NCBI GenBank assembly: GCA_040754455.1
Contig: JBFMCP010000016.1
Span: 1-64,000 of the forward strand
Reading direction: 5' to 3'
Source of the DNA: Nitrospirota bacterium
GTDB lineage: Bacteria > Nitrospirota > Thermodesulfovibrionia > Thermodesulfovibrionales > Dissulfurispiraceae
DNA length: 64,000 nt
Position numbers and translations under genes: made by a program. Each line of letters opens with the position of its first letter. Position 1 is the stretch's first letter. The notes under the pieces were generated by a model. That model made no database searches and had not been told where the DNA came from. It was given only the letters and a program-made list of their open reading frames with translations. Shown one piece after another: positions 50,566-55,494 of the stretch.

Positions 50566-51819
50566 ATGAGCAACGTTAAAGCGAGCAACACAGCAGCCGG
50601 TCAGACCGGGATGAGCACGATACTGACTATTCCCGTCCTCGTATCAGCGCTCGGGTACTTCGTCGATATCTACGATCTCATCCTCTTCAGTATCGTGAGG
50701 GTCCCCAGCCTTACAGAGCTGGGACTCCGGGGACAGGCGCTCCTCGACAAAGGCGTTTTCATCCTCAACATGCAAATGGCCGGTATGCTCCTGGGAGGCA
50801 TCGTCTGGGGCGTCCTCGGTGATAAAAAGGGGCGCTTGAAGATACTCTTCGGCTCCATATTCCTCTACTCCATTGCGAATTTCGCCAACGGGTTTGTCGC
50901 TTCCGTCGAGCAGTATGCCCTGCTCCGTTTTATCGCAGGCGTCGGCCTGGCCGGTGAACTGGGAGCAGGGGTTACGCTGGTGGCCGAAATCCTTCCCAAG
51001 GAATTCCGCGGTTACGGGACCATGGTTATTGCCGCAGTAGGGGTATCGGGGGCGATTCTTGCGAACACGATCGCAGAGCATTTCGACTGGAGAACAGCCT
51101 ATTACATCGGAGGAGGCCTCGGTTTCCTGCTGCTCATCCTGAGGATCAGCGTGTATGAGTCGGCTATGTACAAGCAGATAGAAACCATGCATATCAGTAA
51201 GGGGAATTTTTTCAGCCTCTTCACGAACCGGGAACGATTCTCCCGTTACCTGCGGTCCATCTGCATAGGAATTCCCATCTGGTTCGTTGTCAGCATCCTC
51301 ATCACGCTCTCCCCTGAATTTGCGAAGGCGCTCCGGATTGCCACACCGGTTTCAGCAGGTAAAGCCGTCATGTTCTGTTATCTCGGCCTTGTCTTCGGCG
51401 ATTTTTCGAGCGGTGTACTGAGCCAGTTTCTGAAGAGCCGCAAGAAGGCGGTATGCCTGTTCACCCTGCTCACCGGCGTTTTTGTCATCATCTATTTCTT
51501 TCTCCACCAGGCGAGCGCAACGCTGTTTTATAGCATCTGTTTCGCCTTGGGCATCGCTATCGGCTACTGGGCGCTCTTCATTACCATCGCAGCCGAACAG
51601 TTCGGCACCAATATACGCGCCACTGTTGCCACGACTGTCCCAAATTTCGTGCGCGGCATGGTCGTCCCCATTACTATGCTTTTCCAGGTCGCAAAGAAAC
51701 AGTTCGGTATCCTCCAGGGCGGGGCATTAGTGGGAGCGGTCTGCTTCGCCATAGCCCTATACGCTCTCTACCGTTTGGAAGAGACCTTCAAAAAAGACCT
51801 GGATTATATCGAAATCTAA
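50566..51819 (+). CDS. MFS transporter
   Basis: GYFVDIYD, G.LGDKKGR, RFIAG.GLAGE and AEQFGTNIRAT motifs. Confidence 0.9.
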   Translation: MSNVKASNTAAGQTGMSTILTIPVLVSALGYFVDIYDLILFSIVRVPSLTELGLRGQALLDKGVFILNMQMAGMLLGGIVWGVLGDKKGRLKILFGSIFLYSIANFANGFVASVEQYALLRFIAGVGLAGELGAGVTLVAEILPKEFRGYGTMVIAAVGVSGAILANTIAEHFDWRTAYYIGGGLGFLLLILRISVYESAMYKQIETMHISKGNFFSLFTNRERFSRYLRSICIGIPIWFVVSILITLSPEFAKALRIATPVSAGKAVMFCYLGLVFGDFSSGVLSQFLKSRKKAVCLFTLLTGVFVIIYFFLHQASATLFYSICFALGIAIGYWALFITIAAEQFGTNIRATVATTVPNFVRGMVVPITMLFQVAKKQFGILQGGALVGAVCFAIALYALYRLEETFKKDLDYIEI

Positions 51820-51933
51820 GAGAAGACGGCCCCGTCGGTATCACATTTCTGCGTGCAGCACTTGTTTTAGCCGCACCATCTGATACAATACATTCAATAG
51901 GCACATCGTTATTCTTCTTAGGGGATATAGTTC

Positions 51934-53058
51934 ATGGGCAAACATCTCGTTTTGGTCGGCGGCGGACATGCGCACCTCACGACCATCCTGAGGCTGGAGG
52001 ATTATATCAGGCGTGGTCACCGCGTGACCCTCGTCAGCGCCGATGCCTATCATTACTATTCCGGCATGGGACCGGGCATGCTCGCCGGCATCTACCGTCC
52101 GCAGGATATTCGCTTTCATATCAAAAAAATGTCCGAGGACCGCGGCGCGGTATTTTTCGAGGACAGGGCAGTGAAGATCGACCCGGCACAGCACGTGCTC
52201 CGTCTGCAATCAGGCAAACAGCTTTCCTATGATGTCGTTTCTTTCAATACCGGCAGCGACGTGCCGAAAGAATCCCTGAACGGTTCCGGAGAACGTATCT
52301 TTACCGTTAAGCCGATCATCAATTTATTGCGAGCCCGGAAGTATATCCTCGAGCACATAGAGTCCGGACCGCTGAACATTGTGGTTATCGGCGGCGGCCC
52401 CGCAGGGGTCGAGGTCGCTGGAAATGCCTGGAGGCTTGTTTATAACCATCACGGCACCGCACGGATCATCCTTATTGCCGGACAGCGCCTTTTTCGCGGA
52501 CTTCCTGATAAGGTGCGTTCGCTCGCAATGGATTCGCTGAGCAGTCGCAGCATCGAAGTTCTTGAAGATATCCGTGCGACAAAGATCGAACAGGAATCGA
52601 TCAAACTCTCAAATGGAAGAACCCTCTCTTTTGACATCGCCTTCATTGCTTCCGGTGTCAGGCCTTCTTCTCTATTCAGGGACTCCGGCCTCCCCGCCGG
52701 AGAAGATGGCGGCCTGCTCGTCAATGCGAATCTGCAGAGCATAGCTCATCCTGAAATTTTTGGCGGCGGCGACTGCATCAGCCTTGAGGGCCATCACCTC
52801 CCAAAGGTCGGTGTCTATGCCGTAAGAGAGAATGAAATCCTCCATCATAATCTTTGTGCTGCCCTCGACGGCGGCACCATGAGGACCTTTGAACCGCAGA
52901 AGATCTACCTGCTCATTTTCAATATGGGCAACGGCAAGGGAATATTCTGGAGAAACAACCTCGTCTGGGACGGCAGGACCGCCTTTAGCCTGAAAAATTA
53001 CATTGATAATAGATTCATGAAAAAGTTCCAGGTTTCCGGGGAACGGGAGGAGGAGTGA
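51934..53058 (+). CDS. FAD-dependent pyridine nucleotide-disulfide oxidoreductase resembling the N-terminal domain of fused SelD proteins
   Basis: LVLVGGGHAH, YYSGMGPG, VIGGGPAGVEVA, FGGGDC, PKVGVYAVR and LKNYIDNRFM motifs. Confidence 0.85.
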   Translation: MGKHLVLVGGGHAHLTTILRLEDYIRRGHRVTLVSADAYHYYSGMGPGMLAGIYRPQDIRFHIKKMSEDRGAVFFEDRAVKIDPAQHVLRLQSGKQLSYDVVSFNTGSDVPKESLNGSGERIFTVKPIINLLRARKYILEHIESGPLNIVVIGGGPAGVEVAGNAWRLVYNHHGTARIILIAGQRLFRGLPDKVRSLAMDSLSSRSIEVLEDIRATKIEQESIKLSNGRTLSFDIAFIASGVRPSSLFRDSGLPAGEDGGLLVNANLQSIAHPEIFGGGDCISLEGHHLPKVGVYAVRENEILHHNLCAALDGGTMRTFEPQKIYLLIFNMGNGKGIFWRNNLVWDGRTAFSLKNYIDNRFMKKFQVSGEREEE

Positions 53059-53898
53059 ATGGGAATTCTCGATTATTTCAAACCGGTATCGTCAATGACC
53101 GCTGAGGAGGTCAGGAAATTTCTAAGAGAGAGAAATCCTGATACGTATAATCTCGTCGATGTGCGCCAGCCGCGGGAGTATGAGCGCGGTCATCTTCCCG
53201 GTGCTCACCTTATCCCTGTCGGCCAACTGCCGAACCGTCTCAATGAGATCGATCCGAACAAACCTACCGTTGTCTATTGAGGATCGGGGGTACGCAGCCG
53301 TGCTGCTGCATCGGTCCTTTCCAATGCGGGGTTCAGAGAGGTATACAGTATGGAAGGAGGCATTCGTGCCTGGGAGGGTCTCAGGGCTGAAGGCATACCC
53401 GAGGCCGGCATGATATATTTCGACACGGCGAAAAATCCGGAAGAGCTGATTGCCCTTGCCTGGACGCTCGAAGAGGGCTCACGAAGGTTCTATGCCGAGA
53501 TATCTGCTCAGATCGAGGACAGCGACACATTGACTCTGTTTAAAAACCTCACCACTGCTGAAGAACATCACAAAACAGCGCTCATCAATCTCTATACCAG
53601 CCTTACCGGTAAAGCGCCCGACGCAGGATTTCCCCTTTCGCTCGTTTCGGCAGGAACAACTAATGACTACATGGAAGGCGGTATGCAGGTAAGTGAGGCC
53701 GTAGCATGGGCCAGGGCCAAGAACGTGCATGAGATACTTGAGCTCTCCATAGCACTCGAAACCAATGCCTATGACCTCTATCTAAAGATGCGGAGTGCGG
53801 CTGGCAATGACCGCTCAAAAAAGGTCTTTACGACACTCTACGAAGAGGAGAAAGAACACCTCGATCGCCTTGCAGAGTTATTGGGGAAAAAATTCTGA
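53059..53898 (+). CDS. selenoprotein candidate: rhodanese plus ferritin-like/rubrerythrin-type fusion (279 aa, UGA at codon 74)
   Basis: ORFs 53059-53280 and 53350-53898 share a frame separated by one TGA in VVY-U-GSGVRSRAAA..L...GF..VYSMEGGIRAW. The TGA occupies the rhodanese catalytic Cys position. C-domain has EEHH and EEKEH motifs. Confidence 0.85.
53281..53317 (+). promoter_or_regulatory. bacterial SECIS-like hairpin
   Basis: GGAUCG...GCAGC-CGU-GCUGC...CGGUCC stem-loop starting immediately 3' of the UGA; apical loop contains GU. Confidence 0.6.
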
Positions 53899-53997
53899 GG
53901 GAAACGAAGAAGTCAGGAGCCAGAAGAAAAGCATCTGACAAAAATTTTCTTTTGTTCTTTTCTTCCGGATTCCGGTTCCTGGCTCCTGGATTCTGCT

Positions 53998-55494
53998 TTA
54001 TTTGAACGTTATCTTCTTCTCTTCCATCTTCGCCTTCAGCAGCTCTCCGAGCGTACTGAGGCTGTTGGAAGACTTCTCTTCCTCTTTGAGTGACTCTTTA
54101 TACTGCTTGAGCTCATCCTGTTCCGCCTTATCAATGATCCCTTTGCGGCTCAGGAGCACTTTACCCTTTTCCTGGTCGACCTCGAGCACGATCGCCTGCA
54201 TCTCGGAGCCGGCAGGGAACATGGCATTGTGATCGGCGCCTCTGGCAGTGCCCATTTCGGAATTGGGGATCAGGCCGGAGAGCCCATTGCCGTTCTTAAC
54301 GAAAATGCCGAAGGGCATCACTTTTTCGACGATCCCGTTGAAGCGGTCGCCGACTGCGGGGAGCTCGATCTTTTTCGGCTCCCGCTTGGGCTGCATTGAA
54401 AGTGAAAGCTTTCTGTTCTGCGGATCAACGGCAAGCACATATGCTTCAACCTGCTGGCCGACTTCCACCACCTCTTTGGGATGGTTGATGCGTCTCCCTG
54501 CTCCGAGATTCGAGATATGGATCAGTCCGTCGATGCCGGTCTCAACACTGACGAAGGCGCCGAAGGGGGCCAGGCGGACAATAGTGCCGTTGATCCTGCT
54601 GCCCTCGGTGTATTTCGCCGCAGCCATGCTCCAGGGATCGGGCTGCAGCGCTTTCAAGCTGAGGGAGACACGATGTGTGTCCCAATCGAGCCCTATAATT
54701 TTCGCTGTCACTTCCTGTCCGACTGATACAACATCGCCGGGCTTATCGACTTTCGCCCAGGAAAGTTCGCTCATCGGGATAAGGCCGTCGATGCCACCCA
54801 GGTCGACGAAGGCACCGAACTTCTGGAGAGAGCGCACACGCCCTTTCACCTCTGCGCCGACGCTGAGTGTCGCTCTCAACGCGGCACGCTGCTCCTCACG
54901 CTGCTGCTCCAGGAGCGCCCGCCTCGATACAACGATATTGCGTCCGTCATTTTTATACTCGATCACCTTGAAGGGGAAGGTCTGTTTCAGGTAAGCGGCG
55001 CCCTCCTGCTTGCCGCGCAGGTCAATCTGTGAGAGGGGGCAAAAGCACCGTACGCCTCCAATCGATACCTCGAAGCCGCCTTTCACCTCGGCCTTCACCT
55101 CTCCATTTACCGCGAGGCCCGACTCGAAAGCGTCTTTGACAGCATTCAGCTTCTGCGATGAATAACCGTTCTTGAGTATCGTCAAATGCCTGATGCCGTC
55201 CTGCACGGAAAGGAAATAGGCTTCGACCTCATCTCCCTCGTTCACCCGGGGAATACCCTGCTCGTCCTTGAACTCGGCGAGATCGATGACGCCGTCGCTC
55301 TTGCCGCCGAGATCGACATAGACCGCGTCGCCAGTGATGCCGATAACTTTCGTCCGTACCTTCTGACCAGGACCAAGCCGCATCGCAGGGTTGCCGCTCT
55401 TTTCGAGCAGCGCGGCAAAGGTCTCCTCCTGGGCGGCTTCCTCAGGCGCTCCGTTGCTATTTAAAGTTTCATTCGTGATGCTTTCGTCGGGCAT
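53998..55494 (-). CDS. rpsA: multi-S1-domain protein (30S ribosomal protein S1-like)
   Basis: Repeated S1 motifs FGAFVDLGGIDGLI, FGAFVSV..GIDGLIHIS and FGIFV; possibly a paralogue. Confidence 0.8.
   Translation of the reverse strand: MPDESITNETLNSNGAPEEAAQEETFAALLEKSGNPAMRLGPGQKVRTKVIGITGDAVYVDLGGKSDGVIDLAEFKDEQGIPRVNEGDEVEAYFLSVQDGIRHLTILKNGYSSQKLNAVKDAFESGLAVNGEVKAEVKGGFEVSIGGVRCFCPLSQIDLRGKQEGAAYLKQTFPFKVIEYKNDGRNIVVSRRALLEQQREEQRAALRATLSVGAEVKGRVRSLQKFGAFVDLGGIDGLIPMSELSWAKVDKPGDVVSVGQEVTAKIIGLDWDTHRVSLSLKALQPDPWSMAAAKYTEGSRINGTIVRLAPFGAFVSVETGIDGLIHISNLGAGRRINHPKEVVEVGQQVEAYVLAVDPQNRKLSLSMQPKREPKKIELPAVGDRFNGIVEKVMPFGIFVKNGNGLSGLIPNSEMGTARGADHNAMFPAGSEMQAIVLEVDQEKGKVLLSRKGIIDKAEQDELKQYKESLKEEEKSSNSLSTLGELLKAKMEEKKITFK

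Follow-up and report, generated by a model that had tools for sequence, protein, structure and literature searches.

A stand-alone flavoprotein and a rhodanese/di-iron selenoprotein encoded by abutting genes: a recurrent pair that probably handles reactive sulfur or selenium

Introduction

Do two genes that abut on one contig of a Nitrospirota bacterium encode a single redox system, and if so, what does that system reduce? The stretch of DNA analysed here, referred to as the window, is 64,000 nt long (GenBank assembly GCA_040754455.1, contig JBFMCP010000016.1, positions 1 to 64,000, forward strand). It contains a gene for a stand-alone flavoprotein, followed directly by a gene for a protein in which a rhodanese domain with a predicted selenocysteine (Sec) is joined to a rubrerythrin-like di-iron domain (hereafter the fusion). 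A first-pass annotation had proposed that these two genes form a selenium/sulfur relay, and had related the flavoprotein to the N-terminal domain of fused selenophosphate synthetases (SelD). According to the passages on it in PMC2398784 and PMC2432076, this SelD-fused flavoprotein domain was noted in 2008 and has had no activity assigned to it in the years since.

We found that the pair is conserved across several phyla, and conclude that it probably handles reactive sulfur or selenium. The reading that we prefer, to which we assign a probability of about 0.45, is that the pair uses NAD(P)H to reduce sulfur or selenium that is attached to the Sec or cysteine (Cys) of the fusion.

Results

A flavoprotein gene abuts a gene for a rhodanese/di-iron fusion

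The gene pair and the features within it are listed in Table 1. The flavoprotein gene ends in a TGA stop codon at 53056-53058 and the ATG of its partner follows directly at 53059, an abutment already noted in the first-pass annotation and confirmed here from the open reading frames (ORFs). A run resembling a Shine-Dalgarno sequence falls within the last codons of the flavoprotein gene, and this embedded position suggests that translation of the two genes may be coupled. The ORFs 53059..53280 and 53350..53898 lie in the same frame, and joining them through the TGA at 53278-80, read as Sec (U), gives a protein of 279 aa.

The fusion protein carries a rhodanese domain at residues 14-106 (Pfam PF00581, 80.7 bits) and, from about residue 125 to its C-terminal end at residue 279, a rubrerythrin/ferritin-like di-iron domain (PF02915, 49.7 bits against a cut-off of 22.8). 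No match to RUBY_RBDX, the rubredoxin-like FeS4 domain, was found in the fusion by Pfam scan. The family is large, with 739 relatives, and most of the 120 relatives shown are approximately 279 aa in length and possess both domains. Residues E138, E168, H171, E234, E264 and H267 were invariant among 22 aligned members. By analogy with the rubrerythrin pattern (E, ExxH, E, ExxH) these six residues are expected to be the di-iron ligands, and the conservation of these positions upholds the di-iron site that had been proposed for this protein. Position 74 was Cys in nearly all of the 22 aligned members. By sequence, the rhodanese domain resembles those of 8a56, 3nta and 6pfz, which are coenzyme A (CoA)-persulfide reductase or CoA-disulfide reductase (CoADR)-rhodanese proteins.

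Table 1. Positions of the gene pair and its features in the window (first five rows), and of genes found with or near the flavoprotein gene in related loci (last two rows, given as locus and positions). FAD, flavin adenine dinucleotide; NDH-2, type II NADH dehydrogenase; SQR, sulfide:quinone oxidoreductase; SECIS, selenocysteine insertion sequence.
Feature	Position	Strand	Description
Flavoprotein gene	51934..53058	+	374-aa ORF; stand-alone FAD/NAD(P)H flavoprotein, predicted NDH-2/SQR fold
Shine-Dalgarno-like run GGGAGGAGGAG	53045..53055	+	Purine-rich, read from the sequence; 3-13 nt 5' of the partner ATG
Rhodanese/di-iron fusion gene	53059..53898	+	279-aa predicted selenoprotein via TGA readthrough
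Sec codon TGA	53278..53280	+	Putative Sec 74, rhodanese active-site position, motif U-G-S-G-V-R-S
SECIS-like stem-loop	53279..53319	+	Directly 3' of the UGA; core hairpin GCAGC-CGU-GCUGC at 53294-53306
MtaA/CmuA-family gene with flavoprotein gene	L095:5144-6181; L096:5127-6239; L102:2882-3970		
TIGR04282/TIGR04283 genes near flavoprotein gene	L095:2733-4012; L096:649-1898; L028:6187-7491; L024:10018-10488		

Evidence for a selenocysteine reading of the in-frame TGA

Related loci were collected from named genome records, giving a set of 80. Fifty-eight of these (L015-L072) were counted as full-length relatives of the fusion, and 22 (L073-L094), which match the rhodanese part alone, were left out. 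Across the 58 full-length loci, codon 74 was TGA in 18, Cys in 38 and Gly in 2. A hairpin of the form GCAGC-N3-8-GCUGC, positioned 16-35 nt past this codon, was present in 18 of 19 TGA genes (that of the window included) compared with 1 of 38 Cys genes, and in 1 of the 17 Cys genes that encode the identical RS[RKQ]xxA peptide at this site. The local minimum free energy (MFE) was -12.1 kcal/mol in TGA genes and -9.5 kcal/mol in Cys genes (Mann-Whitney p = 0.001). The MFE over 63 nt showed no difference between Sec and Cys genes, the whole hairpin after the UGA was not exceptional alone when compared with shuffled sequences (z = -0.07), and Rfam gave no match within 51000-55000.

The genome from which the window derives has two SelD genes, each with an in-frame TGA, and one SelB gene; the SelD genes are located on contigs C21 and C37, neither of them the contig of the window. 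The fusion combines the features by which a Sec-rhodanese is recognised, namely a PF00581 domain with Sec at the site of the catalytic Cys, Cys homologues, a SECIS-like element and Sec machinery in the genome. At the level of sequence, we consider the reading of TGA 53278-80 as Sec to be sound. Gene callers routinely break the partner gene at its TGA.

The flavoprotein and its relationship to the SelD-fused domain

The flavoprotein contains the Pfam domain Pyr_redox_2 (7.8e-33), and its best NCBIfam match is TIGR03169 (Nterm_to_SelD), a family that also takes in stand-alone members. The match to this hidden Markov model is full-length (profile 2-365 of 365, E 8.4e-82), and the motifs GGGHAH (G9-H14) and YSGMGPG (Y42-G48, within YYSGMGPG at 41-48) on which the first-pass annotation had based its SelD-N-terminal-like assignment are real: together with G153, G155 and E160 they were invariant in alignments with 27 and 22 relatives. 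That part of the assignment stood. However, at 275.4 bits the match does not reach the curated cut-off (310 bits), and the protein falls in a sister clade, so that membership of the SelD-fused family itself did not. GGGHAH is the predicted FAD motif, and a second dinucleotide motif, GGGPAG (153-158), forms part of a GGGPAGVE sequence canonical for NAD(P)H binding. The sole well-conserved Cys in these same alignments was C281, located within the GGGDC flavin motif, and no conserved Cys pair was found in either of them.

An AlphaFold2 model of the flavoprotein (predicted local distance difference test score, pLDDT, 92.6) was compared with solved structures using Foldseek. This gave template modelling (TM) scores of 0.85-0.91 to NDH-2 (9a63_B, 4nwz, 5na1) and 0.86-0.87 to SQR, a fold match about equal for the two and in agreement with the kinship to SQR and NDH-2 suggested previously. 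By sequence, NDH-2 is the nearest solved relative (20-24% identity), and the two-Rossmann fold, C-terminal domain and FAD and NAD(P)H glycine motifs of NDH-2 are all present. There were also weak matches to NorW and to rubredoxin/ferredoxin reductases, and, as regards the CoADR-rhodanese reductases, a match to TIGR03385 of only 51 bits against a cut-off of 579.

As the fold fits SQR as well as NDH-2, the flavoprotein might run in the opposite direction, oxidising sulfide or selenide, loading the sulfane atom on the rhodanese Sec or Cys and passing the electrons to quinone. The fusion might then carry or further oxidise the product, as in detoxification by SQR, persulfide dioxygenase (PDO) and rhodanese. 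A PDO-type metallo-beta-lactamase-rhodanese gene does adjoin the fusion in four Chloroflexota loci (L055, L057, L061, L063). However, SQR has conserved catalytic cysteines near the flavin, and these are without counterpart in a protein whose sole conserved Cys is C281; the GGGPAGVE motif and the closer sequence relationship to NDH-2 also argue against this direction. We regard SQR-type oxidation as improbable, and a role of the fusion as carrier or further oxidase of its product as equally so.

Long relatives of the flavoprotein numbered 89, of which approximately 83 were SelD fusions 27-36% identical to the protein of the window. The motif GG.HAH was present in 40 of 83 SelD-fused relatives compared with 119 of 120 stand-alone relatives, and YSG[ML].P in 57 of 83 compared with 119 of 120. 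In a quick maximum-likelihood tree of 44 rows, 18 rows fell on one side, consisting of 17 sampled SelD-fused domains and one other fused protein (P0260), and 26 fell on the other, consisting of all the stand-alone forms, that of the window included, and three other fused forms. The split had a Shimodaira-Hasegawa-like approximate likelihood ratio test (SH-aLRT) value of 100. On this sequence evidence the flavoprotein is a sister-clade relative of the SelD-fused domain, and the family call is right at the superfamily level. Among relatives with other partners, P0247 is a flavoprotein fused to a tandem rhodanese, and P0246 (812 aa) is fused to both TIGR04282 and TIGR04283 transferases. A candidate second flavoprotein-rhodanese fusion, P0245, was rejected, as its garbled linker and tail indicated a frameshifted run-through of two adjoining genes. 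Otherwise, the family of the flavoprotein is linked to partners that bear a reactive Cys or Sec, or to metalloid chemistry.

The pairing recurs in two phylum samples and in named loci of further phyla

We counted the two genes as adjacent when they lay on the same contig and strand with no more than 360 nt between the matches. One sample covered the phylum of the window (flavoprotein E <= 1e-30, fusion E <= 1e-25; three further flavoprotein matches of 26-27% identity were set aside). The other covered a second phylum and was centred on the genome of L030, a Geobacteraceae metagenome-assembled genome (MAG; flavoprotein E <= 1e-60). Among 401 genomes of the window's phylum, 25 had the flavoprotein and 60 the fusion; the genes were adjacent in 13 and both present but apart in 6, and in a further 6 the flavoprotein was present with no fusion found. 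The corresponding counts among 351 genomes of the second phylum were 36, 91, 18, 10 and 8. The genes were adjacent in 13 of 19 and 18 of 28 genomes holding both, which for the combined samples is 31 of 47 genomes with both genes, 31 of 61 flavoprotein genomes, and approximately 1 in 24 of all genomes sampled (31/752). Because same-strand adjacency recurs in 13/25 and 18/36 flavoprotein genomes, the abutment in the window is beyond chance. The first-pass annotation had made its proposal depend on conservation of this neighbourhood; the pair does recur in other genomes and phyla, and the outcome that would have counted against it was not realised.

All 13 pairs in the window's phylum were flavoprotein-first, and 12 of them use Sec. 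The 18 pairs of the second phylum were divided equally between flavoprotein-first and fusion-first orders (9 each) and between Sec and Cys forms (9 each). In one locus of reversed order (L048) the stop codon of the fusion gene overlaps the start of the flavoprotein gene by 4 nt. Since the flavoproteins of the fusion-first pairs fall into a single supported clade (SH-aLRT 99), the pairing has been inherited together. In the named loci, at least 14 of 58 fusion genes had an adjacent flavoprotein gene, a lower bound as several loci have short flanks. By their record labels these 14 belong to Nitrospirota, several Thermodesulfobacteriota families, a Myxococcota MAG and Candidatus Scalindua (Planctomycetota). 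A second copy of the pair was seen in one genome (G348, C30:547687-548943), where the flavoprotein is a fragment with internal stops and the adjoining Sec-form fusion looks intact.

These counts also bear on whether the two genes are mere neighbours or co-regulated genes, each with other partners, the flavoprotein then being a general NDH-2-like dehydrogenase. Fourteen of 61 flavoprotein genomes had no detected fusion and 16 had the genes apart, as this explanation would have it; of the 6 genomes of the window's phylum with the genes apart, 5 came from one genus. In addition, an MtaA/CmuA-family methyltransferase gene precedes the flavoprotein gene in one genus (L095, L096, L102). On the other hand, the genes are adjacent in 31 of 47 genomes with both, in two phylum samples to which the named loci add two phyla, the genes are found in either order with junctions that are short or overlap, and the fusion-first pairs make up a single well-supported flavoprotein clade. 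Mere co-location is for us a long shot. That the two genes constitute one co-expressed redox module is our tentative conclusion, at slightly less than even odds.

A proposed mechanism

In the mechanism that we favour, the flavoprotein would receive electrons from NAD(P)H and pass them to sulfane sulfur or selenium carried by the Sec or Cys of the partner, in the form of a persulfide, a perselenide or a Se-S adduct. Sulfide or selenide would be freed and the carrier restored. The di-iron domain might bind or use the freed chalcogenide, or might handle oxidants at the same site. The module would be a split, two-protein counterpart both of fused flavoprotein-rhodanese persulfide reductases and of flavoprotein-SelD fusions. 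In this scheme we infer that the partners make contact, which way the electrons run, what the substrate is and what the di-iron site does. Complex prediction with the natural Cys-form pair of L028 and FAD scored 0.00 ('no answer'), which speaks neither for nor against binding.

Several observations weigh against an NAD(P)H-driven reductase of rhodanese-bound sulfur or selenium. The pairing is facultative, with 14 of 61 flavoprotein genomes in which no fusion was found and 16 in which the genes are apart, and 120 of 151 fusion genomes are without an adjoining flavoprotein gene. A fusion of the flavoprotein to rhodanese was found in just 1 of 89 long relatives. Gly occupies the active-site position in 2 of 58 loci, and because of these two relatives the rhodanese Cys cannot always be needed. 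Finally, the flavodoxin and ferritin, Rieske and rubrerythrin, FUR and DJ-1/PfpI genes found beside distant fusions fit a di-iron, oxidative-stress function at least equally well.

Contexts of distant fusions and a peroxide- or oxygen-reducing alternative

These contexts mix sulfur chemistry with oxidative-stress themes. In the four Chloroflexota MAGs mentioned above (L055, L057, L061, L063) a fusion of a distant subfamily is followed by the PDO-type beta-lactamase-rhodanese gene, and in three of them (L055, L057, L061) Rieske and rubrerythrin genes precede the fusion gene. In Methanosarcinales MAGs (L059, L062, L064) flavodoxin and ferritin genes precede it. A DUF255 thioredoxin-like gene flanks the fusion gene in L034 and L066-L070, with Desulfobacterales-type loci among them, and a MutY-like gene also flanks it in L066, L067 and L069. 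Elsewhere the fusion gene lies beside genes for rubrerythrin (L020, L032, L048, L051), a FUR-family regulator (L048, L053), DJ-1/PfpI (L032, L049, L050) or FMN reductases (L024, L044).

Such electron-carrier and stress genes lend weight to the main rival explanation, in which the flavoprotein would be an NAD(P)H reductase of the di-iron centre and the fusion a rubrerythrin-type enzyme with which anaerobes reduce peroxide or oxygen. The rhodanese Sec or Cys would then be merely an auxiliary or regulatory selenol or thiol, and the pair would serve oxidative-stress defence without rubredoxin, in the manner of the chain from NADH:rubredoxin oxidoreductase through rubredoxin to rubrerythrin. All six ligand positions are invariant, the Rubrerythrin domain exceeds its Pfam cut-off, the flavoprotein weakly matches NorW and rubredoxin/ferredoxin reductases, and the 2 of 58 loci with Gly in place of the rhodanese Cys keep the di-iron domain. 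However, the other fusions of the flavoprotein are to SelD, rhodanese and transferases, and a genuine ferritin-like fusion was found in 0 of 89 long relatives. Moreover, the active-site Cys or Sec is retained in 56 of 58 loci, in 18 of them as Sec with its own hairpin, which would be costly for a bystander residue. We therefore consider peroxide or oxygen reduction at the di-iron centre unlikely, though a serious competitor to the chalcogen reductase that we prefer.

Is the module specific for selenium?

Every one of the 25 flavoprotein genomes in the window's phylum has SelD. This co-occurrence is little informative, as 127 of the 139 genomes sampled from the same families have it too. A search of five genomes that carry a Cys-form pair detected SelD above the cut-off in three; none was found in a 2.2-Mb Desulfuromonadales MAG or a 4.1-Mb Ca. 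Scalindua MAG, the completeness of which is not known. As Cys-form pairs are common and pair genomes in which no SelD was found exist, nothing ties the module to selenium over sulfur. In view of the recurrent links of the family with SelD and with Sec/Cys active sites, the module may still have a role with selenium. A selenium-specific role, and the electron path from NAD(P)H through FAD and Sec to the di-iron site proposed in the first-pass annotation, are hypothetical.

A more specific version would have the stand-alone and SelD-fused clades share one activity. The Cys-less, NDH-2-like flavoprotein would use the Sec or Cys of a partner in trans to reduce selenium, or sulfane sulfur, bound to a protein, with selenide or sulfide as the product, and the pair would be a dedicated selenium-mobilising relay, in which the Sec-rhodanese captures selenium, the flavoprotein releases HSe- and the di-iron domain buffers or guards it. 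If true, this would account for the presence of the domain on approximately 40% of marine Cys-type SelDs. We think such a relay distinctly unlikely.

Other features of the window and of related loci

The gene upstream of the flavoprotein gene, at a distance of 114 nt, encodes a major facilitator superfamily (MFS) transporter, and a convergent ribosomal protein S1-like gene lies downstream of the fusion gene on the opposite strand. The MFS gene had been thought a possible supplier of substrate. The MFS protein of the window was matched in 0 of 80 related loci (tblastn, E <= 1e-5), and in a genome of the same genus, which keeps the pair and the S1 gene, a response-regulator/AraC gene takes the upstream position; on these grounds we rejected the MFS gene as part of the unit. 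One related locus (L018) carries other MFS genes. Neighbouring ORFs were predicted with a simple greedy caller and 219 of 304 were scanned against Pfam; within this scope no recurring neighbour other than the flavoprotein was found in the close subfamily.

Between the fusion and S1-like genes, a spacer of 99 nt (53899-53997) contains a long inverted repeat, caggagccag ... ctggctcctg, which went unflagged in the terminator scan. Neither the promoter scan nor the terminator scan exceeded shuffled expectation, and there are no tRNA genes in the window.

Elsewhere in the same genome, genes for an ArsR/SmtB-family regulator, a 251-aa tandem rhodanese and a YdjY-domain protein lie on one strand (C21:48524-51769, L008). 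A Sec-containing selD (C21:48405-49331) sits downstream of these three genes, a second association of rhodanese with selenium in this genome. Rhodanese-like matches with one in-frame TGA each at C59:3066-3356 and C11:73120-73428 may be further Sec-rhodaneses.

In a genus of the same order (g29), the flavoprotein gene lies away from the fusion gene and directly 3' of the MtaA/CmuA-family (URO-D fold) methyltransferase gene (Table 1). Genes of TIGR04282 or TIGR04283, for which the NCBIfam name is 'arsenosugar biosynthesis glycosyltransferase', were present within a few kb of the flavoprotein gene in 4 of 23 flavoprotein-bearing loci; in the genome of the window, TIGR04283 is on another contig. 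Glucose-6-phosphate dehydrogenase genes were found near the flavoprotein gene in two unrelated loci (L044:2298-4658, L095:27-1942), the latter with 6-phosphogluconolactonase as well. This enzyme could be a local source of NADPH, although two cases may be due to chance.

Discussion

The components of this system are of known kinds, namely a Sec-rhodanese, a SelD-associated flavoprotein domain and a rubrerythrin-like domain. The recurrent two-gene pairing itself appears to be undescribed: in a search of the full-text literature, with subscription journals and supplements outside its reach, we found no description of the pair or of a fused rhodanese-rubrerythrin protein. The closest stand-alone relatives of the SelD-fused domain recur together with a separate protein that is easily expressed and carries a reactive Sec or Cys, and the pair offers a simple two-protein handle on what the SelD-associated flavoprotein family reduces. 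The anaerobic hosts belong to Nitrospirota and Thermodesulfobacteriota, two groups with a central part in the cycling of sulfur and metals. Whether its substrate is persulfides, selenium or peroxide, the module bears on how strict anaerobes manage reactive sulfur and selenium and oxidants.

The partner can be compared with the UxxG-motif Sec-rhodaneses, a listed kind of bacterial selenoprotein (forms 2 and 4 in the relevant sections of the review PMC13188914). It shares with them the PF00581 domain and U at the catalytic site, and its U-G-S-G sequence fits UxxG. The entries for these forms list the rhodanese domain alone and mention no flavoprotein partner, and the words 'rubrerythrin' and 'ferritin' are absent from the main text of the review.

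Ndh-SelD fusions (TIGR03169) belong to the same superfamily as the flavoprotein, have the GGGH..H and YSGM.PG motifs in common with it, and likewise join it to a partner bearing a reactive Cys or Sec. In the passages concerned, every detected Ndh-SelD fusion has CxxC in the SelD active site (PMC2398784), and the flavoprotein domain is proposed to make the substrate of SelD (PMC2432076, PMC2398784, PMC4561486). The window pair differs in that its flavoprotein stands alone in a sister clade (275 against 310 bits, 27-36% identity) and its partner is a rhodanese/di-iron protein rather than SelD, the SelD genes being on other contigs.

The chain of NADH:rubredoxin oxidoreductase, rubredoxin and rubrerythrin also couples a flavoprotein reductase to a rubrerythrin-type di-iron centre. 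The window pair is without a rubredoxin domain or gene, and has a rhodanese where rubrerythrin has its rubredoxin-like domain. The SQR-PDO-rhodanese system likewise combines an SQR-fold flavoprotein, a rhodanese carrier and an iron enzyme. The rhodanese of the window resembles that of the PDO-rhodanese fusion BpPRF (5ve4), and PDO-type genes adjoin some relatives of the fusion. However, the flavoprotein lacks the SQR cysteines and has the NAD(P)H motif, the hosts are anaerobic, and the predicted iron site is of the di-iron, four-helix-bundle type, in contrast to the mono-iron site and beta-lactamase fold of PDO.

The fused flavoprotein-rhodanese persulfide reductases provide the mechanistic model for the reading that we favour. 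The NADH-dependent persulfide and CoA-persulfide reductases (3nta/3ntd, 6pfz, 8a56) also combine a pyridine-nucleotide flavoprotein with a rhodanese, and one of similar sequence. In CoADR-rhodanese persulfide reductases the flavoprotein part contains bound CoA and a redox-active Cys. Whereas reductases of the CoA-disulfide-reductase type are single polypeptides, the window system consists of two, with an NDH-2-like flavoprotein that has no conserved Cys pair, a predicted Sec in the rhodanese and an additional di-iron domain.

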